A stretch of DNA of 64,000 bases. Source: Dehalococcoidia bacterium. GTDB lineage: Bacteria > Chloroflexota > Dehalococcoidia > Tepidiformales > Tepidiformaceae. A program made the position numbers and the translations under genes. The stretch covers positions 4,649 through 68,648 of the forward strand of contig JADYYG010000038.1 in assembly GCA_020853755.1 (NCBI GenBank), written 5' to 3'. Each line of letters opens with the position of its first letter. Positions within the stretch are counted from its first letter, which is position 1. A model generated the notes under the pieces. It did not search any database, was not told where the DNA came from, and worked only from the letters and a program-made list of their open reading frames with translations. Shown piece after piece: positions 27,943 to 60,535 of the stretch.

Positions 27943-28422
27943 GTGCATGCCGAAAACCTCCGTATGAGTCAGCCACGCCCCGGCGGCGATTACCGGCCTG
28001 CATATGAGGCCTTGCGGCGGGAGTACAACGACTTCCGCTACTTCCTGCCGGATGCGCTGATCGAGGTCGACCTCAGTTCGCTCCAGATCCTGTACGCGAA
28101 TCGGATGGCCGAGATCGTCATCGGGATCACTCCCGAGGACGTGGAGGCAGGACTCAACGGGACCGCCCTGGTCGACGGTCCGGACATGCCGCGGCTGCTC
28201 GAATTGATGCAGGGCTACGCCGGTGAAAGCCGGGCAAAGAACAGCCCCTACGAGCGCACCGGACGCCAGGCCATCCACACGGCCACGCTCCGGCGGCGCG
28301 ACGGTTCGACGTTCCTCGCCGAGACGCAGAGTTCGTTCGTCCTCGACTCTCGCGGCGTGCCCGTGCGCATGCTCACGATCATCCGCGACATCTCCTACCG
28401 GGAGAGCCAGGCCGACGGCTGA
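27943..28422 (+). CDS. stand-alone PAS-domain protein
   Basis: Single PAS-like fold (..LIEVDLSSLQILYANRMAEIVIG.. RRRDGSTFLAETQSSFVLD..). I chose the GTG at 27943 because GAGGAA lies 6 nt upstream. Starts at 27928 or 27964 are also possible. Confidence 0.65.
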   Translation: MHAENLRMSQPRPGGDYRPAYEALRREYNDFRYFLPDALIEVDLSSLQILYANRMAEIVIGITPEDVEAGLNGTALVDGPDMPRLLELMQGYAGESRAKNSPYERTGRQAIHTATLRRRDGSTFLAETQSSFVLDSRGVPVRMLTIIRDISYRESQADG

Positions 28423-28487: not shown

Positions 28488-28868
28488 ATGCCGATTCCAG
28501 TTGTAATGGGCGCCCAGATCATGTGTTCCTTTGGGACCGGACCCGGGTCGTTAATCGTGGTCCCACAGGGGCCGCCAGTGCTGATCGAAGGGAAGCCCGC
28601 CGCAACGGTGATGGACCACATCCCGTTCGTGAACATCGCGCCGTTCCCGACCTGCATCGCGCCGACGAACCCGGCCGGGATGGCGAAAGTGCCGCCAACG
28701 CCCGGCCCGTGCATCCCGGTGACCACGGCCCCCTGGGTTCCCCCGTCACCGACAACTCAGATCAACAAGAAGCCGGCACTCTGCATGGGCGCGACGCTGA
28801 TGTGTACCGCCTGGGCGGGCGTCATCACCATCGTGAACCCCGGCGCCACCAAGGAAATCGTCAACTAG
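28488..28868 (+). CDS. DUF4280 (PAAR-like spike-tip) domain protein
   Basis: 126 aa. The pattern VVMGAQIMCSFGTGPGSL..GKPAATVMDHIPFVNIAPFPTC..PGPCIPVTTAPWVP..KPALCMGATLMC..GVITI follows the DUF4280 Cys/Pro pattern closely. Confidence 0.8.
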   Translation: MPIPVVMGAQIMCSFGTGPGSLIVVPQGPPVLIEGKPAATVMDHIPFVNIAPFPTCIAPTNPAGMAKVPPTPGPCIPVTTAPWVPPSPTTQINKKPALCMGATLMCTAWAGVITIVNPGATKEIVN

Positions 28869-30208
28869 GACGCCCGGCTGCGCCCGAACGCCCGCCGCTC
28901 GGGCCGGAGGCCTTCGGCTGCGCGCAGGCAGAGGGCCAGGCTCGCCACGCAGTCATCGTGTTCGCCCTGCGGCGCGGCCCACCCGATCTGGAGATGGCCC
29001 GCGCGTTCGACCCGGCAGAGGCGCAGTTCGCGCCAGAGCCGGCCAATCCCGGCGCTCCCGGCCCGGGCAATGGCGAGGCGGCCCGTCGCCGCGGCGGCCT
29101 GCAAGGCGAACCCCAGCGCTGACTTCTCGGCACGGGTGAAGACGAGCGGCTCGACTACCCGCCCGAGTTCGCCACGGAGCTGCGCGGTGAGCGCCGCGCC
29201 GAGGCCGGTGGCATCGCAGACCAGCCGCTCGATTCGCCAGGCGCGGGCAAGCGCCGCCACCGCCGCAACCTGCGTTTCGAACGGCGTGCCGGTCCAGCAT
29301 TCGACGGCCACGACCTCCAGCCCGCCATCGGTTTGCCGGCCGATGGTGAGGACGGTCGAGTCGCCGCCGAGCCGTTCGCCCGCGAAATCGAGCCCGGCGC
29401 AGTAGCGTTCGCCCGGCAGTGGTTGTTCGAGCGCCGGGAAGCTGCCGGCGACGGCGCGGAGGGCCTCGGGTGAGAGCAGCGTTGCCTCGGACGCCGCGGC
29501 CACCAGGTCGTACTGGGACCGGAAGATCGGGTGATCCGCACCAAGGCGCTCGCGTTCGAGTTCGACGTAGCGGCCATAGGGCGGGTTGTACCGCGCGACC
29601 TCGGCCCAGCTGAACTGGTGGTGCCAGCTGCGGAGGCTGATTTCCGCCGGGCTCCCGGTCAGGCCCGCGTCGCGCCGGCGGTTGGCTTCGACGGCGTCTT
29701 CGAGAAGCGAGTTGCCGCTCCACGGCGTGCCGAACATCACCGTCGATGCTCCAGTTGATGCCGTCATCGGCCGGAACTGGCGGTTGAACCAGTCAGCATC
29801 GATGTCCTGCGCTTCGTCGGCGATGAGGGCGAGCGAGGCGGTGTGCCCGGCGACGTTCGCGGTTGGCGCGGCGCTGAGGAAGACGGCGTGCGCGCGGCCG
29901 CAATGGATGGCCTGGCCCTCGCGCCGCGGGCGGATTGGGAAGAGGTCATCCCAGCGGCGCATCTGGGCGAGCGTGCGCTGGAGGCTTAGGCCCGCCTGGG
30001 GCCGGAAGCTCGGCGCGCAGACCACGATGCTGCCGCCTTCGGCGGCGTTCGCCAGTAACAGCCCGGCCACCAGCCACGCCGAGATCTCATTCTTGCCTGC
30101 CTGCCGCGGGAACATCACGGTCAGCGTCTGGCCGCGGGCCGCGACGAGGTTGTAGTGGAGGCTGCGAAGCGTAGCCGCCTGGTAGGCGCGAAGACCGGGG
30201 ATTGCCAT
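28865..30208 (-). CDS. phage terminase large-subunit-like protein
   Basis: 447 aa with the N-terminal LRAYQ...FPRQAGKNE (Walker A-like, GKN instead of GKS/T) and LALIADEAQDI (Walker B). The C-terminal RNaseH-like nuclease acidic residues are present (GLDFAGE, VCDATGLG, GEHDDCV). Codon usage looks host-like. Confidence 0.75.
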   Translation of the reverse strand: MAIPGLRAYQAATLRSLHYNLVAARGQTLTVMFPRQAGKNEISAWLVAGLLLANAAEGGSIVVCAPSFRPQAGLSLQRTLAQMRRWDDLFPIRPRREGQAIHCGRAHAVFLSAAPTANVAGHTASLALIADEAQDIDADWFNRQFRPMTASTGASTVMFGTPWSGNSLLEDAVEANRRRDAGLTGSPAEISLRSWHHQFSWAEVARYNPPYGRYVELERERLGADHPIFRSQYDLVAAASEATLLSPEALRAVAGSFPALEQPLPGERYCAGLDFAGERLGGDSTVLTIGRQTDGGLEVVAVECWTGTPFETQVAAVAALARAWRIERLVCDATGLGAALTAQLRGELGRVVEPLVFTRAEKSALGFALQAAAATGRLAIARAGSAGIGRLWRELRLCRVERAGHLQIGWAAPQGEHDDCVASLALCLRAAEGLRPERRAFGRSRAS

Positions 30209-30260
30209 GCCTTGGAGGGTGGCTTGCCTGCGCGTTTGGTCGAACGCCCTGCTGGCGCGC

Positions 30261-30782
30261 TTAGTTCGCGGCCGGGTTTGGCGTTTCGGTAGCCGTTGGT
30301 TCGGTCGTCGGGGCGGGAGTCTCGCTGCCCGGCGTTGCCGTTTCGGTGGCCTCGGGCGTTGGCGTGCCCTCCGGTGTTTCCGTCGCTTCCGGCGTCTCGT
30401 CGGTGTCCGAGGCGACGTTCACGATCTTGAGCGGAGGAGGCGTCGGATCGGCGGCGGCGGCGCTCACACCCGCATCATCACCCGAGAGGCCGAAGATGCG
30501 CAGCGGCGTCAGCGTGGGCGAGGGTTCTGGTTCAGGTTCGGCGACGAGCGCGGGGGCGGCGGGTTCTTTGTGGACAACCGGCTCGATGTACGACGTCAAC
30601 AGGGTGTCGAGTGCGGGGACGGTGAACGGCGTTCCGGTGTCGATAACGCGGGCCTGTTGGGTGGCCGGCGGCGGGCCTTCGAATGGCCCCCATTGCGCCC
30701 GCTCGGCGGAACTGAGCGCGAGGCCAGACACGCCGATCGCGAAAAGCACCATGGCCAGCAGGAGGGGCGCTTTCCCTGCCAT
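30261..30782 (-). CDS. membrane-anchored protein with acidic T/P/E-rich tail (hypothetical)
   Basis: 173 aa. It begins MAGKAPLLLAMVLFAIGVSGLAL (TM anchor), with GGGAAAGAGGGGG upstream. The C-terminus is low-complexity TPEATETP repeats. Confidence 0.6.
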   Translation of the reverse strand: MAGKAPLLLAMVLFAIGVSGLALSSAERAQWGPFEGPPPATQQARVIDTGTPFTVPALDTLLTSYIEPVVHKEPAAPALVAEPEPEPSPTLTPLRIFGLSGDDAGVSAAAADPTPPPLKIVNVASDTDETPEATETPEGTPTPEATETATPGSETPAPTTEPTATETPNPAAN

Positions 30783-30964
30783 AACGCCGATCTTGCCCCC
30801 TCTTTCCCGTCAGCGCCACCTTGAGGATGGCGCTGTCACCTGTTCGCTCCATCCTGACACCCGAATTGGCCCTGCGCGACCCGCCACCCGTAAGGGTTCT
30901 CCCCCATTCCCGCCGGGCAACCCCCGCTGTTTCGGCGAAGGGCTGCCCGGCAGCGAACCGGGCC

Positions 30965-32575
30965 TTAGCGGGCGAGGAACTCCTTGCTTGCCCAGCCCGT
31001 CTCACCGGAAGGCGCCTGCACCTTGTGGAAGGTGACGCCCCCCGCGGCCTGCTCGTCCGAGAGGTCACGCAGGAGCACGGTATCCGCGTAGCAGCCGAGC
31101 ACCTTCGCGCTCGTTGAAGGGGTCTCGCGGACGTTCAGGCAGTCACCGGCGCCGGTCACCCGGAGGAACGGACCGGGTTCGACCAGCTCGATGCGGTTGC
31201 GCTGGAAGTCGTACGCGCTGCTGCCCACCGGCCCGAAGAGTTCGAGCACATTCACGGTCCCCGTGTGGAGGTCCAGCATCGCCGGGTAGAGCGGCGCGCC
31301 GCCGTCGGGGGCCACGTTGCCGAAGGCCACCGCCTGCGTCAGGACGCTGCCGATAGAGAGGCTGGCCGGGCCCTTGAACGCCCGCGTGAGCTTGCCGCCC
31401 TGCATCAGCCCCAGGTAGGCATCCGGCCCGTTCCCGGTGTACCAGCCGATGAGCATATCGCCGCCGGGCGACACGTCGACGATCCATGCGCGCTGGGCTC
31501 CGAGGTCCGGCAGGACGACGAGGGTCGAACCGTCGAGCGCCTGGATGGTGCGATTGTCGGCCATCCGCCAGCCGACGAGGCGGTTCTCCGCGAATTCGGG
31601 TTGCGCGCCCGCTGGCGGGGTGAGCACCTGGTTCGAACCGAGCAGCTGGAAGCGCCACTGCACCTGACCGTCGCTGGAGGTGGATCGGTTGACGAGCACG
31701 CCCTGGGCGGTCGTCGCCGCGACGGTGGCCGCGCCGTCGAAGGTCCCGAGCGCCTGCCAGCTGACGCCGCCGTCCGTCGAGCGGTAGATAGTGGTCTGCG
31801 CATCGGCGCTGATCTGGCCGACGTCGCCGCAGTAGCCGCGGGTGCACATGCTCAGGTAGTCCGCGCCGTCGCGCGTCCAGTAATCGCCGATGATGTCGCC
31901 GGGCGGCTTCGGCAGCGCCTCGATCTTGAGCTTGCCGTTTGCATCGAGGGTGACGCGTTCGAAACCGGTCGTCGGGCCGTCGCACTGGTAGCAGCCCTTC
32001 GCCACGATGACCGAGAGCGGCACCGGCAGTGAGCCGGGCGCGCCGAACGTCATTGCGGAAACCGGGACACCGGCCACCACTTCGCCGGTGGGATTGGCGA
32101 TGATGGGCGAAGGCGCCGGCGTGACGCTGGCGGGAACGCTGGGCGAGGCGGTGGCGGGCGCGGGCACGGTCGCGGTGGATTCGATGCCGCCACCGGCATG
32201 CTCTTCGCCTTCGCTGCCGGTTTCGTAGAGGGCGAAGATCGCCATCGCCGCGATGATGGCAACCCCGGCGGCCAGGGCAGTAACCCCGGCCCACTTGAAG
32301 ACGCCCGAGGTGGCGAAGCCGGCAACGCGTGTGATTCGCATCCGCCAGCCGTTTTCGTGGCGCCAGTATTCGGCCGCCTCATCGCGCGATTGGACGCCGA
32401 GGCGGGTGATGATTTCGCTGACGTGCCACTTGGCGCCGTCGAGGCTGATGCCGAGTTCCTCGGCGATTTCGCGGTTCGTGCGGCCGCGTGCGAGCAGGGT
32501 GAGAACCTCCCGCTGGCGCGGTGTCCAGCTCGTCACACGGGACGTTTCGATGGGAGAGGGCGTTGTCACAGTCAT
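30965..32575 (-). CDS. membrane-tethered LuxR-family HTH regulator with extracytoplasmic Asp-box domain and C-terminal SH3b-like domain
   Basis: ATG at 32575. The N-terminal LuxR HTH is TPRQREVLTLLARGRTNREIAEELGISLDGAKWHVSEI. One TM helix follows (WAGVTALAAGVAIIAAMAIFAL). The ectodomain carries STDGGVSW (Asp-box). The C-terminal ~60 aa look SH3b-like. Confidence 0.75.
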   Translation of the reverse strand: MTVTTPSPIETSRVTSWTPRQREVLTLLARGRTNREIAEELGISLDGAKWHVSEIITRLGVQSRDEAAEYWRHENGWRMRITRVAGFATSGVFKWAGVTALAAGVAIIAAMAIFALYETGSEGEEHAGGGIESTATVPAPATASPSVPASVTPAPSPIIANPTGEVVAGVPVSAMTFGAPGSLPVPLSVIVAKGCYQCDGPTTGFERVTLDANGKLKIEALPKPPGDIIGDYWTRDGADYLSMCTRGYCGDVGQISADAQTTIYRSTDGGVSWQALGTFDGAATVAATTAQGVLVNRSTSSDGQVQWRFQLLGSNQVLTPPAGAQPEFAENRLVGWRMADNRTIQALDGSTLVVLPDLGAQRAWIVDVSPGGDMLIGWYTGNGPDAYLGLMQGGKLTRAFKGPASLSIGSVLTQAVAFGNVAPDGGAPLYPAMLDLHTGTVNVLELFGPVGSSAYDFQRNRIELVEPGPFLRVTGAGDCLNVRETPSTSAKVLGCYADTVLLRDLSDEQAAGGVTFHKVQAPSGETGWASKEFLAR

Positions 32576-37979: not shown

Positions 37980-38579
37980 TCAGGCTGGCACGTAGAGGCG
38001 GTGCTGGCGCACACGGTTCTTTCGCCCGTAGGTGTGGAGTAGCTGCCGGAAGGCGGTCTGGCGCGCCCGCGCGAGAGCGGCGTACCGTTCGCTGGCCTCC
38101 GGTTGGAGGGTGACGATATTCGTGACGCCGGCTGCCAGTTCGAGCGCCGCATAGGCCGCCGCGCCCGTCACCAGGACGTCCGCCAGGTGGTCCGGCAGCG
38201 TCGAACCATCCTCGTCGAGCACGTGCGAGGCCGTGTAGAAGACGCGCACGTCCGCTCCGTCGGGCGGCGAATCGGTGTGCAGGATGAGTGTTTGCGCCCA
38301 GGTTCCGAAGCCCGGGTAACACGGCGGGTACTGTCCGATGGGGTACTCGACCATCTCCACTTCGATCAGGGCGTCGAGCGCGGAGAGGTCGAGGTCGCGG
38401 CTACCCGCCGTGGTCGCGATGTCCTCGGACAGTTCGCGCGGGATGGCAAGGCTCAGGTCGGAAAGCGCGTGGGCGATGTGCCGGTCGATCTGGTCATCCG
38501 GCCAGGCCGTGGCATCGAGGTCGGACAGGTCGCTGCGGACGCGCCCGCGGATATCGGTGAGGGTGGTCATGGCGGTCAC
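37980..38579 (-). CDS. phage-associated hypothetical protein (possible head-completion / neck adaptor)
   Basis: 199 aa. The pattern LTDIRGRVRSDLSDLD..WPDDQIDRHIAHALSDLSLAIPRE ... RLYVPA resembles proteins I have seen next to capsid genes in prophages. The assignment rests on recollection only. Confidence 0.4.
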   Translation of the reverse strand: MTAMTTLTDIRGRVRSDLSDLDATAWPDDQIDRHIAHALSDLSLAIPRELSEDIATTAGSRDLDLSALDALIEVEMVEYPIGQYPPCYPGFGTWAQTLILHTDSPPDGADVRVFYTASHVLDEDGSTLPDHLADVLVTGAAAYAALELAAGVTNIVTLQPEASERYAALARARQTAFRQLLHTYGRKNRVRQHRLYVPA

Positions 38580-38663
38580 CGTAGCCAGCCGCCCGGCGAG
38601 CGCGAACGGCCCGATGGCACGCCCGGCGGTTCCGCGTTGAACCTATGCGTGGACCCTGTGGCG

Positions 38664-39778: not shown

Positions 39779-40642
39779 ATGACCAGGAGCACTGATCTGC
39801 CCTTTGAGGGTGAAACTGCCATTGCTCTTTTCCAGGCGAAGCAAGTCCGCCGTATATTCCACGATGATGAGTGGTACTTCTCGATCATCGATGTCGTCGA
39901 AGCTCTAACCGACTCAGGTACCCCACGCCGCTACTGGTCAGATCTCAAGGCAAAACTTGGCCGAGAAGCAGGGGATCTTCAACTGTACGATGAAATCGTA
40001 CAGTTGAAACTAGAGGCTGCTGACGGGCGCCTCCGCGAGACCGACACCGCCAATGCCGAGACTCTCCTGCGTATCATCCAATCCATCCCTTCGCCGAAGG
40101 CGGAGCCTTTCAAGCGCTGGCTCGCTCGGGTCGCCTTCGAGCGGCTCCAGGAGTACCAGGATCCCGAGAAAGCGATCCGGCGGGCAATCCTTGATTATCA
40201 ACTACAAGGTTATGACGATGACTGGATCGACACCCGCATCAAGACCATCGTCAGCCGGAAAGAACTGACCGGCGAATGGGCAAGACGTGGAGTCAAAGAA
40301 GGGCAAGAGTTTGCCATCCTGACCAATGTAATTTCGGAGGAGACCTTTGGTGTCGGCGTCCAGGCTCATAAGGAGCACAAGAGCCTGAAACGGAACCATA
40401 ACCTTCGGGACCACATGACCGATCTGGAGCTTATCCTCACGATGCTCGGAGAGAAGTCCACGGTGAACATCGCCCGGGCTCGCGATGCGCAGGGGTTTCA
40501 GCAGAACAGGGGCGCGGCCACGGATGGCGGGAAGATCGCAGGAGATGCGCGGAGGAACTTGGAGAGGGAGCTCGGGGAGTCCGTGGTGTCCCCCTCGAAT
40601 TTTCTTCCCGACAGGCGCCGGCCGGAACTCCCAACCGAATAA
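39779..40642 (+). CDS. BRO-N domain / DNA-damage-inducible protein D (DinD)-like protein
   Basis: 287 aa. The N-terminal Bro-N-like region is FQAKQVRRIFHDDEWYFSIIDVVEAL. The C-terminal part is collinear with E. coli DinD as I recall it (..KSLKRNHNLRDHMTDLEL..). The gene is clearly lower in GC than its surroundings. Confidence 0.75.
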   Translation: MTRSTDLPFEGETAIALFQAKQVRRIFHDDEWYFSIIDVVEALTDSGTPRRYWSDLKAKLGREAGDLQLYDEIVQLKLEAADGRLRETDTANAETLLRIIQSIPSPKAEPFKRWLARVAFERLQEYQDPEKAIRRAILDYQLQGYDDDWIDTRIKTIVSRKELTGEWARRGVKEGQEFAILTNVISEETFGVGVQAHKEHKSLKRNHNLRDHMTDLELILTMLGEKSTVNIARARDAQGFQQNRGAATDGGKIAGDARRNLERELGESVVSPSNFLPDRRRPELPTE

Positions 40643-42482: not shown

Positions 42483-43496
42483 TCACATTCCGTCATCGAA
42501 GTAGCTGACCTGCTGTCCTGTGCAGTTGTACAGGACAGCGTCGTCGTTATCCGAATTGCTCCACTGGCTTGCAGCGGTCCACCACAGGGTAGCCGGCGTG
42601 TTGGGGAACGCCGGCGTTCCAGACCGAATCTGTACTGAGCCGTTCAGGGTGAAGTTGCCGGGGAAGTCGAACCGCTGCTGTCCCTTCACCGAGATGACGT
42701 ACCACCCAGTCATGTTTCCCGAGCCCGAGACGGTCACCACCTCTCCGAACTTATCCAGACCGGTGATCGTTGCAGTGGCAGCCTGGCATAAGCTGCCGAC
42801 CGTGGGTGTAGGGGTAGCTGTCCCCTGCGGCGTGGGGCTTGGCGTCGCGGTTGCCGTCGGCGATTGAACCGGGGTGGCGGTTCCGGGAACACCGACCATG
42901 CCGCATACAGGCCAGAGGCCGCGCTTCTCCGCCTTCGCCTCTTGCTGTGCCGCCTCGATGCGTGCCCGGTACTTTACGTCGGGAGGGTACACCGCCAGCT
43001 CGGCGTACCCGTCGCGAACGAGGCGCTCGTTGAACAATGCGCCGTCGAGCCAGACGTAGCGCAGGTTTCGCCCGAATGAATCCTTGTTCGACACATCCTT
43101 TTCAAGCGCCACCTGGTGGTTGAGGAGTGCCTCGTTCGTGTAGCCCGCCGCCTGCTTCCCGAAGCATTCACCCGGGTTTATCTCGGGTGTGTTCACAAGG
43201 ATGAGCCGGACACGCCCGGGTTCGGCGCAACCGGCGACGTCGATAGTGTCCCCATCGACAATGTGTGTGACTGTGCAGATGGCCATGCCCGCCGGTGTGC
43301 TGGCGGGCATGGCCGTTGCGGTTGCTGTCATCGCCGGAGTGGCTGGAGGGGCTGCGGAGTCAGCTGCGAGTTGCGGTAGCCGAGCGCGCACCAAGGTGCT
43401 CGAAGCACTGCTGGTTCGTTCGGAGGAGACCATCGCGAGAACGCCGAGCGCGAGACCGCATCCGGCAAGAAGCGCCGCGGAGAACCTGCCGTTCAT
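42483..43496 (-). CDS. secreted thermonuclease (SNase) fused to a lamin-tail-like C-terminal domain
   Basis: 337 aa with a signal/anchor. The SNase core is HIVDGDTIDV..RVRLILVNTPE..GRNLRYVWL. A PT linker follows, then a C-terminal ITGLDKFGEVVTVSGSGNMTGWYV...NSDNDDAVLYN, which is LTD-like. Confidence 0.75.
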   Translation of the reverse strand: MNGRFSAALLAGCGLALGVLAMVSSERTSSASSTLVRARLPQLAADSAAPPATPAMTATATAMPASTPAGMAICTVTHIVDGDTIDVAGCAEPGRVRLILVNTPEINPGECFGKQAAGYTNEALLNHQVALEKDVSNKDSFGRNLRYVWLDGALFNERLVRDGYAELAVYPPDVKYRARIEAAQQEAKAEKRGLWPVCGMVGVPGTATPVQSPTATATPSPTPQGTATPTPTVGSLCQAATATITGLDKFGEVVTVSGSGNMTGWYVISVKGQQRFDFPGNFTLNGSVQIRSGTPAFPNTPATLWWTAASQWSNSDNDDAVLYNCTGQQVSYFDDGM

Positions 43497-45199: not shown

Positions 45200-46090
45200 T
45201 CAGGCCGCGCGCACGCCGGTGAGCCGGGCCAGCTTTACGCTGTTGAACAGCGCGAGCCCCGCGTACCACTTCACCCGCACGCGGCTGGCGTCCTTCGTTT
45301 CGAGGTTGCCGACGCGGTCGACGGTGAGGCCGCCGGGAGCGGTCAGCCCGCTGAGCGCTCCCTCGCCGAACTGCATCGCGTAGATGGTGCTGCAGTCGTT
45401 GCTCGTGCCGACGGTTTTCGCGTCGCTGATGTAGTCGCAAATGCCGATCGGCACGCCGTCGTAGTACTGGACCATGTGGCCGAACTGGTCGCGGTCCGCT
45501 TCGAGGAAGCCGCCGCTGGCGCGGGCCAGTTCGTTCAGCGTGCGCCGGGTGCGGCGGCTCATCAGCAGCAACTCCGGCTTGCCGCCGCGCACCTTGTCGA
45601 TCATCTCGTCGAGTTTCGCCAGCGTGAGGACGGCGCCGTTCGTGCCCATGCTGACCGATTGCCCGGCGGCGCAGAGCACGTCGATGCCGTCGAAGCTCAG
45701 CGGGTCCACGCCGTCGTCGCCGTTCACGAAGGTGTCGTCGAAGAGCGCCTGGACGGCCTTCGCCTTGAGCTGGACGACCGCGGCTTCGAGGTCCTGGATG
45801 TTCGAACGGGTGGACTTGAGGAAGTTATCGACGTCCGCGTCGCCGCCGAGGATTTTCAGCGTCGCGGTCGCCTGGGTGAAGGTCGGCGTGCTTTCGTCCC
45901 AGTCGTCGCCGACGTCGTAGAAGCTGGCCGAGGGAGCGGCGTTTTCACGGTTGTAGGTCAGGCCGTTGCCGACGATCTCGACGAACGGCAGGCGCTGGAG
46001 GATGGGGCTTTCGAGCGCGATCGTCTCGATCACGCCGGTGAGCAGCGAGTCGTTGCTCAGTTTCGAAGCTTCGACGAGGGTCAGGGCCAA
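45200..46090 (-). CDS. phage major-capsid-like protein (presumed HK97-fold)
   Basis: TTG start at 46090, 7 nt after a perfect AAGGAGG, giving 296 aa. The N-terminus ALTLVEASKLSNDSLLTGVIETIALESPILQRLPFVEIVGNGLTYNRE resembles a recurrent phage MCP family from memory. The upstream 76 aa of the track ORF are implausible. Confidence 0.65.
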   Translation of the reverse strand: MALTLVEASKLSNDSLLTGVIETIALESPILQRLPFVEIVGNGLTYNRENAAPSASFYDVGDDWDESTPTFTQATATLKILGGDADVDNFLKSTRSNIQDLEAAVVQLKAKAVQALFDDTFVNGDDGVDPLSFDGIDVLCAAGQSVSMGTNGAVLTLAKLDEMIDKVRGGKPELLLMSRRTRRTLNELARASGGFLEADRDQFGHMVQYYDGVPIGICDYISDAKTVGTSNDCSTIYAMQFGEGALSGLTAPGGLTVDRVGNLETKDASRVRVKWYAGLALFNSVKLARLTGVRAA

Positions 46091-46172
46091 GTGGGCGCCT
46101 CCTTGTGGGTTGGCTCGATGGTTGCGAGCCGCGGGAGGAACCCGAAGGGCCGGTTGGCACGAACGCAGAAGG

Positions 46173-58316: not shown

Positions 58317-58465
58317 AGCTCACCAAGGGTAAGCGGCAAGCCTGTGGCAGGGAATCCGCGTGTGAACCCGGGCTCGCCGGCGCAACTGCTGAGTGATTTT
58401 GTCCGAAGCGCGGTGACAAACCTCCCTTCGCCGTCGGGTGCGAAGGAAAACACCCTTGTCCCGCG

Positions 58466-60535
58466 ATGCTCACTCTCACCAGCACCCTCCAAGCCGCCAT
58501 CGGCGACCCTCGCCGTAAGCCCGCTATCGCCGCCTCAGTCCAGCCCTACCGCTTCAACGTCCCCATCCTCACCGCTTCCTGGCTCGGCGCCAACGGCTCC
58601 GCCGATACCCAACTCTCCCTCGCCGTCAATCCCACCGACCGCTCAAAGCTCGTCGCTGTCCGCTCCAACGGCACCGCCCTCGACTTCTCTACCCCCTACC
58701 CCTCCGGCGCCTGGACTAACCTCGACACTATCTCCGCAGGCCAGGGCTTCCAGCTCGCCTACGACCCCACAGCCGCCGTCTTCGCCGTCGCCTATGGTGA
58801 CGGTACGGCCCTCAAATTCCGCACCTCCGCTGACGGCCTCACCTGGTCCGCCGCCACCACCATCGTCACCGAGGCCTCTAACATCGGAGCCGTCGCACTC
58901 GCCTTCGACGACTCCGGCGACGCCTGCGTCTTCTACGTCATCGGCACCTCCACCACCCTCAACCGCATCCGCCGCACAGCTGGCGCCTGGGCGGCCTCCG
59001 GCGCCAACTGGTCCCGCTCGTCCAGCGTCGCCAACCTCACCGGCCTCGCCGCCTACTGGCGCGCCGACTACTTCCTCGCCGTCACCGGCCTCGCCGCCAC
59101 ATCCCTCGCCCCCACCGCCTGGGCGGTCCGCATGGGAGACACCTTCTACGCCCCCAACGCCTGGTCAACCCTCAAAACCATCACCGAGGCTGACCCAGCC
59201 TCTACACTCACCTTCGCCTACCCCTCCATCGTCGACTTCGACGGCTACGCCTTCGCCACCTTCCAGCGCACCGAAGCCGGCAACGTCCCCAGCCAGACCG
59301 TCCAGCTCGCCCACTCCCTCTCTCCCGGCCCTATCGGCCTCTGGTCGGAACCTCGCCCCGTCCCATGGATCGACACCACCCACGGAGCCGCACTCGCACA
59401 CTTCGACGACGACACCTACAACCTCACCTGGATCGCAGGCTCCGCCTACGGCCACGTCTCCCAGCATCCCCCTTCCTACGACGTCTCAGCCCGCATCCTC
59501 GCACTCTCCTACCGCCTCACACCCGGCTCCCTCAGCCTCCGGCTCGAGCTCGACAACCACGACGGCAACGCACGCTTTCACCCCTCAGCCGACTTCCGCA
59601 TCGACGTCGGCCGCGACGTCCTCGTCTCCCTCGGCTACCACACCTCAGCCGGAGCCGAGCACGCCACCTTCCTCCGCGCCAACATCCACCGCATCACCGA
59701 CCAGATCGGCCCCGGCGCTCACCGCCTCATCATCGAGGCTAGCGGCCCATGGGAAGCCATGGACCGCTACCGTGCCCTCGCCGCCTGGACTGCACCCGCA
59801 GGCACCACCCGCGGCAACACCTTCCAGCGCGTCGCCGCTCTCGCCGGCCTTGAAGTCTCCACCGCCTCCGGCGGCTTCGCACCCTCCACCGCCTGGACCA
59901 CCGACACCCCGGCCTTCGCCATCGCCGCCGGCGAGAAGGGTTCAACCACCCTTCAACGCCTCCTCACCGTCACACCCGACTTTGTCCGCCCAGCCTTCGG
60001 CTCCGGCGGCCTTGAAATCTGCACCGCACCCGTCGACACCTCCGGCGCGCCCATCTTCGCCCTCGGCCCTTCCCCTGGTTCCCCCTACCCCCTGCTTGAC
60101 CTCCAACTCGCCGACCAGCTCGCGCCCAACCTCTTCCGCCTGCAGGGTCCCGACCGCTACGCCGACTCCGCCCGTCTCGGCGCCGACGGCTACGTCGACA
60201 TCCTCAGCGTCGGCCCCGCCGCCCAGCTCGTCCGTGACCTGGACGCCACCACCAACACCGCCGCCACCACCCGCGCCGCCAACGCCCGCAAACGCGCCCT
60301 GCAGCTGGAGCCTCGCGGCCGCGCCGTCGTCCCATTTCACCCCGGCCTTGAACTCTTCGACCCCGTCGCCTTCCGCTGGAACCTCAACCCCCTCGACGGA
60401 CTGGAAGACGCAACCCGCCGCATCGTCGGCCTCGCCGTCGACTACCGCGCCGACCCGGCCCCAGCCGCCGGCGCCGGTCGCGTCGCCTACACCGCCACAC
60501 TCGACCTCGCCGAAGCCGCCGGCTTCGACGGCTAA
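58466..60535 (+). CDS. phage tail/baseplate-hub-like protein with N-terminal Asp-box (BNR) beta-propeller-like region
   Basis: 689 aa. It has SADGLTW (Asp-box). The C-terminal half (..LSLRLELDNHDGNARF..DVLVSLGYHTSAGAEHATFLRANIHRI..LIIEASGPWEAM..) resembles gpD/gp27-type hub proteins from memory. Almost every codon ends in C. The 897-aa alternative frame 58131..60824 is a P/S/T-rich shadow. Confidence 0.6.
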   Translation: MLTLTSTLQAAIGDPRRKPAIAASVQPYRFNVPILTASWLGANGSADTQLSLAVNPTDRSKLVAVRSNGTALDFSTPYPSGAWTNLDTISAGQGFQLAYDPTAAVFAVAYGDGTALKFRTSADGLTWSAATTIVTEASNIGAVALAFDDSGDACVFYVIGTSTTLNRIRRTAGAWAASGANWSRSSSVANLTGLAAYWRADYFLAVTGLAATSLAPTAWAVRMGDTFYAPNAWSTLKTITEADPASTLTFAYPSIVDFDGYAFATFQRTEAGNVPSQTVQLAHSLSPGPIGLWSEPRPVPWIDTTHGAALAHFDDDTYNLTWIAGSAYGHVSQHPPSYDVSARILALSYRLTPGSLSLRLELDNHDGNARFHPSADFRIDVGRDVLVSLGYHTSAGAEHATFLRANIHRITDQIGPGAHRLIIEASGPWEAMDRYRALAAWTAPAGTTRGNTFQRVAALAGLEVSTASGGFAPSTAWTTDTPAFAIAAGEKGSTTLQRLLTVTPDFVRPAFGSGGLEICTAPVDTSGAPIFALGPSPGSPYPLLDLQLADQLAPNLFRLQGPDRYADSARLGADGYVDILSVGPAAQLVRDLDATTNTAATTRAANARKRALQLEPRGRAVVPFHPGLELFDPVAFRWNLNPLDGLEDATRRIVGLAVDYRADPAPAAGAGRVAYTATLDLAEAAGFDG

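Follow-up and report, generated by a model that had tools for sequence, protein, structure and literature searches.

The DNA analysed here (the window) is a stretch of 64 000 nucleotides from a Dehalococcoidia bacterium of the family Tepidiformaceae (Chloroflexota), taken from contig JADYYG010000038.1 of GenBank assembly GCA_020853755.1 (positions 4,649 to 68,648). Two convergent genes in it are the subject of this report: one for a phage-type large terminase subunit (TerL; 28865..30208, minus strand, 447 residues) and one for a PAAR-like protein of the DUF4280 family (28488..28868, plus strand, 126 residues). With moderate confidence, we regard TerL as a functional member of a domesticated and dispersed set of phage head and packaging genes, and the DUF4280 protein as the spike tip of an extracellular contractile injection system (eCIS).

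The gene at 28865..30208 encodes an intact large terminase that is under selection and comprises an N-terminal ATPase domain and a C-terminal RNaseH-like nuclease domain, both activities being predicted from motifs and a structural model. This identity, proposed in the initial annotation, was upheld by profiles, motifs and comparison with TerL structures. Residues 272–426 match the Pfam family Terminase_6C (PF17289; E = 9e-12, 45.6 bits against a cutoff of 22.6) and residues 6–431 match the large-terminase family phrog_2 of PHROG (E = 9e-19). A model generated by AlphaFold2 had a predicted local distance difference test score (pLDDT) of 91.5 and a predicted template-modelling (TM) score of 0.80. 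The top 40+ PDB matches of this model in Foldseek are large terminases only, namely those of T4 (gp17), Sf6 (gp2), D6E, HK97 and P74-26/G20c. The matches span both domains, with a TM-score of ~0.6 against full-length D6E TerL. The nuclease domain compares with that of G20c at a TM-score of 0.80 and a root-mean-square deviation of 2.6–2.9 Å, and the ATPase domain superposes on the ATPase domains of the P74-26, T4 and D6E terminases.

More than 450 homologous proteins of 435–470 residues (51–96% identity) were identified, all of them from Chloroflexota or Dehalococcoidia assemblies and some encoded on contigs of 1–3 Mb. Conservation was analysed in an alignment of 38 homologues that covers the same range of identity. 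The Walker A residues Arg35, Gln36, Gly38, Lys39 and Asn40 are invariant (the window sequence reads P34-R-Q-A-G-K39-N40-E), as are the Walker B residues Asp131 and Glu132 and, likewise, Thr161. The acidic nuclease residues Asp274, Asp332, Asp418 and Asp419, which the initial annotation had proposed to check in orthologues, are also invariant. The ratio of nonsynonymous to synonymous substitution rates (dN/dS) is 0.10 for the closest pair of TerL genes (dS 0.18) and 0.18–0.28 for more distant pairs. A separate observation concerns one genome of the same genus, in which the TerL match (G255:C194:1976-3310) contains a single in-frame TAG; either a sequencing error or a recent inactivation is possible.

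It had been pointed out that the Walker A lysine of this terminase is followed by asparagine rather than by serine or threonine. Asn40 is real but is no oddity of the window gene, as it occurs in 38 of 38 homologues and in the nearest phage terminase (30% identity, E = 4e-40), which comes from an isolated phage of Bacillus, vB_BboS-125, and whose Walker A reads TRQAGKNEISA. By this comparison the Lys-Asn pair is normal for the clade and no defect. The Walker A of the related phage BCD7 reads SRQSGKSE and is a canonical GKS motif. As a natural variant of a packaging ATPase, the Lys-Asn motif is of biochemical interest. The terminases of these two phages are the closest phage homologues and share the domain order of the window TerL, with the RQAGKNE Walker A in vB_BboS-125, but they have ~100 additional N-terminal residues and are encoded directly upstream of the portal inside a complete virion module.

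The initial annotation also stated that TerL has no other packaging partners. At the locus this is true: Pfam and PHROG scans of the neighbouring open reading frames (ORFs) revealed no portal or small terminase on either side. The genome as a whole does contain dispersed portal, capsid and adaptor genes, which co-occur with TerL across the class. Two of them lie in the window, 8–15 kb from TerL: a lone HK97-fold major capsid gene (45200..46090, minus strand; phrog_212 at 3e-71, PF05065) and a lone head–tail adaptor-like gene (37980..38579, minus strand; PF24175, SU10_adaptor, 30.8 bits). A lone SPP1-type portal gene is located on another contig (C51:118587-119873, minus strand, or L099:10587-11873; SPP1_portal 60 bits, phrog_64 2e-31), flanked by genes for an aminoglycoside-kinase-like protein and an enoyl-CoA hydratase. 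The portal of BCD7 matches it with 25% identity over 453 residues (E = 1e-26) and was the only query to recover it; nothing in the genome matched the portal of vB_BboS-125 or the head proteins of Ab18, a Pseudomonas phage. A hub-like protein of 689 residues (58466..60535, plus strand) is a probable further member of the set, as judged from a motif-like site before its gene (see below) and from relatives in which the gene adjoins that of the capsid (G080) or portal (G228). It evolves fast (30–42% identity within the family), is found in 30 of the 41 family genomes described below and has no match in Pfam or PHROG. The dispersed units occupy at least two contigs and span more than 30 kb within the window. 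In the same genome, an 8.6 kb contig (C20; L101) has genes for a portal of HK97 type (PF04860, 3e-77) and a capsid (PF05065, 3e-71) in phage order; this contig is probably part of a genuine prophage or phage genome and unrelated to the dispersed set.

The units of the set are connected by a promoter-like motif, GTG(C/A)C-N9-T(A/C/T)(C/G)G, which is found upstream of the TerL genes of relatives. Of 78 regions upstream of TerL, 22 contain it, with its first base almost invariably at −49 to −51 from the start codon; of 27 regions upstream of the capsid gene, 23 contain it, at −74 to −80. By chance, 0.0095 occurrences per region would be expected. The regions upstream of the DUF4280 genes (0/17), and of the PAS (0/6) and LuxR (0/4) genes of the locus and its relatives, lack it. 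A position weight matrix (PWM) was built solely from the sites of relatives and used to scan the window's own genome (6.7 Mb two-strand sequence). Eight sites scored 17 or more, and three of these precede the capsid (canonical motif, 46143..46160, score 18.0, at −73), the portal (contig C51, 17.6, at −75) and the adaptor (canonical motif, 38603..38620, 17.0, at −44). When the 69 called genes of the window were ordered by PWM score, the capsid and adaptor genes came top and were followed by the hub-like gene, with a motif-like site at 58413..58430 (GTGAC-N9-TTCG, 10.3, at −56), and a staphylococcal-nuclease-like gene (9.4). The site before TerL (30241..30258, minus strand; GCGCC-N9-TTCG, at −50) has one mismatch, and relatives of this TerL at 69–76% identity bear a canonical GTGCC-N9-T.SG at the same position. 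This promoter-like site directly upstream of TerL speaks for the gene having its own promoter, as opposed to belonging to a single transcript 32575..28865, which the initial annotation had considered. The PWM scan found no such motif upstream of the eCIS genes.

The staphylococcal-nuclease-like protein is encoded at 42483-43331 (minus strand; SNase 2e-19, phage nuclease family phrog_20876 1e-32), with its near-motif 80 nt upstream, and its gene could be another member of the regulon. Two uses of the motif were tried and rejected. The string GTGCC-N9-TTCG does not serve as a genome-wide marker: it has 118 matches, mostly inside genes, and because it is unspecific the PWM was used together with a test of position. 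The top PWM site of the genome (contig C14:33683, minus strand, score 19.0) lies 105 nt upstream of lexA, and control of the motif by the SOS response was considered. Only two of 30 family lexA upstream regions reach a score of 12, while all 30 contain a GAAC-N4-GTTC box at −22 to −32; four such boxes occur in the window and none precedes a phage-like gene. The link between motif and lexA was dropped because the lexA motif site is not conserved and the window boxes do not stand before phage-like genes.

The distribution of the set was analysed in 301 genomes drawn evenly from the Dehalococcoidia (the class sample) and in 41 genomes of the family (the family sample). In the class sample, TerL is present in 200 genomes, mostly as a single full-length copy without internal stops, the portal in 178 and the capsid in 163 (54–94% identity); a few genomes, such as G020 and G102, have 2–5 copies of TerL. 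The three genes show the same pattern of presence family by family. In the window's own family TerL, portal and capsid are found in 16, 16 and 15 of 17 genomes, respectively, in family f6 in 16 of 17 each and in family f20 in 12, 11 and 11 of 12, and all three are absent alike from the genomes of families f22 (17 genomes), f24 (7) and f29 (6). Their arrangement varies. In other families TerL still adjoins the portal gene (seen in G005, G010, G025, G027, G049, G069 and G190), with the capsid a few kilobases further on, and in G025 and G190 all three genes lie within ~6.5 kb in phage order. Members of the TerL family also occur in Tepidiforma genomes (L059, L067 and L070). In the own, Tepidiformaceae-like family the genes of the set are scattered singly among housekeeping genes. 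In ~20 species of this family the capsid gene is divergent and ~150 bp from TerL, whereas in the clade of the window it is 15 kb away. The conserved neighbours of TerL in the capsid-adjacent relatives encode housekeeping enzymes (lipoyl synthase, thiolase, aspartokinase and CoA ligase), with no further particle genes among them. As a side observation, members of the capsid-adjacent clade (L037, L044, L052 and ~16 others) carry a HicA/HicB pair and a gene for a conserved protein of ~156 residues at 50–800 bp downstream of TerL; the window's own genome has a homologue of the latter at G000:C27:119693-120031, with no motif upstream.

Synteny with the closest relative extends over 13 kb, the flanking housekeeping genes are kept in related species and the strength of the TerL match declines with taxonomic distance. 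A reading of the window as prophage was rejected because the contig yielded no tyrosine integrase, the window yielded no tRNA and the composition is host-like: the G+C content of the window is ~68%, and the TerL locus matches its flanks, with no dip.

The proposed mechanism is as follows. TerL, as a predicted DNA-packaging ATPase and nuclease, would have been kept by the host as one unit of a phage-derived set; the other units would be the portal, the major capsid protein, the head–tail adaptor and the hub-like protein, and much of the Dehalococcoidia would have inherited them. Some families retain the phage order terminase, portal, capsid, and in the window's own family the units are scattered with each of them keeping the motif at a set distance from its start codon; through this motif some factor may switch them on together. 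A procapsid would then be built from capsid and portal, and TerL would dock on the portal, pump DNA in and cut it with its nuclease domain. The cargo would be host DNA and not the element itself, since no small terminase was recognized and the genes are dispersed, and the particle would be like a gene transfer agent (GTA). More tentatively, the Dehalococcoidia may carry a class-wide, vertically inherited packaging particle system that is scattered in some families yet co-regulated through a private motif, and that would represent a new GTA-like family with an eCIS tip gene held next to TerL in two clades.

Like GTAs (RcGTA of Rhodobacter capsulatus and other such viriforms), the set consists of intact phage head and packaging genes that are kept by the host lineage-wide, partly dispersed over the chromosome, with a common regulatory signal and no integrase. 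Unlike them, it is known from genes alone and from the Chloroflexota, its units are scattered singly and do not make up a main cluster, no tail genes beyond those for the adaptor and the hub-like protein are linked to it, and no small terminase was recognized. Full-text searches of the library consulted turned up no paper on a system of this kind in Chloroflexota or Dehalococcoidia. The Dehalococcoidia are an abundant, mostly uncultured class of soils, aquifers, sediments and sponges, and if the set builds particles it would provide a route of gene exchange among them. It would also be a case of a virus-derived machine that was dismantled gene by gene and whose parts still operate together under a common promoter signal. 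Annotators of these genomes should accordingly avoid the label of prophage remnant for a terminase, portal or capsid gene that stands alone.

The DUF4280 protein most likely serves as the PAAR-like tip on the VgrG spike of an eCIS encoded on contig C43, and not as a packaging partner of TerL, as suggested by co-occurrence across genomes. Its PAAR-like nature, asserted in the initial annotation, is borne out by a match to PF14107 (E = 4e-29; 101.9 bits against a cutoff of 26.3) and by four cysteines (Cys13, Cys56, Cys75 and Cys106) that are invariant in 26 DUF4280 sequences; four conserved cysteines define the family (PMC5014421). The sole significant PDB match of the DUF4280 profile is 9jg8_B, the N-terminal region of a DUF3289-family protein (E = 1.4e-4). 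The gene is under purifying selection, with dN/dS of 0.07–0.22. A search for paralogues found none: DUF4280 is single-copy and the only PAAR-type gene detectable in the genome.

A search for a spike partner located a VgrG in an eCIS cluster that lacks a PAAR gene. This cluster lies outside the window, at ~102,500–119,100 of contig C43 (L103, L104), and otherwise looks complete, with an AAA ATPase with a winged-helix domain, eCIS_core, sheath, two gp19 tube proteins, a CIS_tube-LysM protein, a 587-residue VgrG, gp25 and Baseplate_J. No PAAR gene was found in the cluster and nothing lies between gp25 and Baseplate_J, its usual place. VgrG is present in 23 of the 41 family genomes; of these, 12 have a canonical PAAR gene (usually next to VgrG), nine have DUF4280, two have neither and none has both. 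Among ten further genomes with a TerL-adjacent DUF4280 gene, VgrG was found in eight, and a canonical PAAR gene in none of the five tested. In all, VgrG occurs in 17 of 20 genomes with DUF4280 and in 14 of 31 without it (Fisher p = 0.007, a value that overstates the association because related genomes are not independent). Where DUF4280 is located away from TerL, VgrG is present in eight of eight genomes and in four of them lies 26–29 kb off on the same contig.

The frequency of the DUF4280 gene, which is found in ten of the 41 family genomes and ten of the 301 class genomes, also speaks against the pairing with TerL seen in the initial annotation. TerL is found in 200 of the same 301 and the two genes share no motif. 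DUF4280 is so rare that TerL must work without it in most lineages. In a separate observation, a membrane-anchored protein of ~255 residues is encoded next to DUF4280 in five of the eight loci away from TerL (L090, L091, L093, L094 and L096). It has a conserved C-terminal QCESGxN...GSYGLxQ and resembles a lytic transglycosylase, with no match in Pfam or PHROG; a homologue is encoded in the window's own genome at G000:C3:23075-23860.

The DUF4280 protein resembles the Francisella IglG family (PAAR type H) in its PF14107 match, its four cysteines and its co-occurrence with a VgrG-type spike. It differs in that its gene is far from the contractile cluster (on another contig here, and 26–29 kb away in some relatives), in that it has no N- or C-terminal extension and in that the host system is a Chloroflexota eCIS and not a type VI secretion system. 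The C43 cluster in turn resembles eCISs of the Afp/PVC type in having its components in the usual order, and differs in the absence of a PAAR gene at the Afp10 position, for which the window DUF4280 is the sole candidate in the genome. This result implies that the spike tip of an eCIS can be encoded away from the cluster, where surveys of eCIS components restricted to clusters would miss it.

Several points weigh against the reading of TerL as part of a domesticated set and of DUF4280 as an eCIS tip. The head and packaging set is known here as genes alone, and its retention by the host and inheritance with the lineage are suggested by distribution and synteny. No small terminase was found among the neighbouring or scanned ORFs, which is weak evidence as small terminases are poorly conserved. 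The motif pattern was defined after some of its sites had been viewed, and the related genomes are non-independent samples. In the site before the window TerL a nearly invariant T is replaced by C and the PWM score is only 5.6; because this copy is degenerate, expression of TerL may differ from that of the other units. With a pLDDT of 56, the AlphaFold2 model of the DUF4280 protein was not good enough to search for similar folds. Among 80 species-level loci, 18 have DUF4280 immediately downstream of TerL, and these 18 make up most of two strongly supported clades of the TerL tree (11 of 13 and seven of eight members), the remaining members being mostly on contigs too short to show the adjacency. 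Lastly, three genomes with a TerL-adjacent DUF4280 gene (G080, G330 and G334) show neither VgrG nor sheath; sister species of these have VgrG, and therefore recent loss or incomplete bins are possible.

The last two points are the ones that would be expected if TerL and DUF4280 cooperate, either because the head genes and the eCIS form one domesticated myovirus-like particle or because DUF4280 caps the hub of the head particle. The adjacency is convergent in 14 loci and co-directional in four, it persists when a PAS gene is inserted between the two genes (L016) and when their spacing shifts from a 4-nt overlap to ~650 bp, and the flank opposite DUF4280 is kept only in the five closest relatives; the purifying selection on DUF4280 fits cooperation as well. 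We nevertheless think it unlikely. The rarity of DUF4280 within the class and family is out of step with the frequency of TerL (200/301 and 16/17), and the shared motif is absent from the 17 DUF4280 upstream regions and from all eCIS genes. DUF4280 away from TerL is always accompanied by VgrG, and its distribution complements that of canonical PAAR genes. The C43 cluster has features of an eCIS (AAA ATPase and eCIS_core), not of a phage tail, and each eCIS-less genome has a sister with an eCIS, as expected from recent loss or incomplete bins.

The other alternatives concern TerL itself. It is very unlikely to be what is left of a broken-up prophage, decaying and with no present function: its solitary position in cellular surroundings, where neither portal nor capsid nor small terminase adjoins it, and its degenerate motif could be read in this way, but the frame is intact, the catalytic residues are invariant at 51–96% identity, dN/dS is 0.10–0.28, and two thirds of the class genomes have the gene, usually as one full-length copy and together with intact portal and capsid genes. 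The separation of TerL from the other head genes in its own family and the lack of a recognized small terminase would also suit a terminase co-opted into a role outside packaging, such as that of a capsid-independent, stand-alone ATP-driven nuclease in repair or defence. This is improbable given that TerL tracks portal and capsid by family, shares a motif with them and adjoins the portal in other families. TerL, portal and capsid could, finally, belong to a widespread prophage or satellite that has repeatedly infected Dehalococcoidia, to which the compact phage-order arrangement in G025 and G190 and the multiple TerL copies in G020 and G102 would conform. To such a mobile element we assign a similarly low probability: single copies prevail among the genomes, matches weaken with taxonomic distance, housekeeping flanks are conserved, and in the window's own genome the units occupy at least two contigs, the window contains no tRNA and its contig no integrase. 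The reading in which TerL serves a domesticated set and DUF4280 an eCIS is thus the one that we retain.

The layout of the locus agrees with its earlier description. The tetranucleotide CTAG at 28865–28868 is common to the ends of both ORFs, the stop codon of DUF4280 being the TAG at 28866–28868 and that of TerL the complement of 28865–28867. A small stand-alone PAS-like protein is encoded upstream of DUF4280 (27943..28422, plus strand), with a PAS_9 match just under the cutoff (26.8 against 27 bits); its gene adjoins DUF4280 or TerL in seven related loci, in varying order and orientation. On the strand of TerL and directly upstream of it is the gene for a protein of 173 residues (30261..30782, minus strand) that is rich in Thr, Pro and Ala (17% Pro, 14% Thr) and has a hydrophobic segment at residues 1–27, which may be a membrane anchor or a signal sequence. 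It has no match in Pfam or PHROG and is kept only in the five closest loci. A LuxR/GerE-type regulator is encoded further upstream (30965..32536, minus strand); it has a GerE helix–turn–helix (6e-13), one transmembrane segment (residues 110–139 in the 555-residue reading) and a large C-terminal domain, and its neighbourhood is kept in close relatives only. The hydrophobic segments agree with the membrane location that had been proposed for these two proteins, and the GerE domain and the composition with their earlier description as LuxR-type and T/P-rich.

Beyond these genes, both flanks of the locus are cellular. One includes genes for a DEAD-box helicase, a glyoxalase, a C26 peptidase, a desaturase, a ferritin and a P450, and the other includes genes for DinB, a metallo-β-lactamase-fold protein and LeuA. 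Elsewhere in the window, a Bro-N domain protein is encoded at 39779-40642 (plus strand) and matches the phage family phrog_15286 at 2e-88. This gene has the weakest coding score among the nearby called genes and its stretch is slightly lower in G+C, so that it may be a recent mobile insertion.

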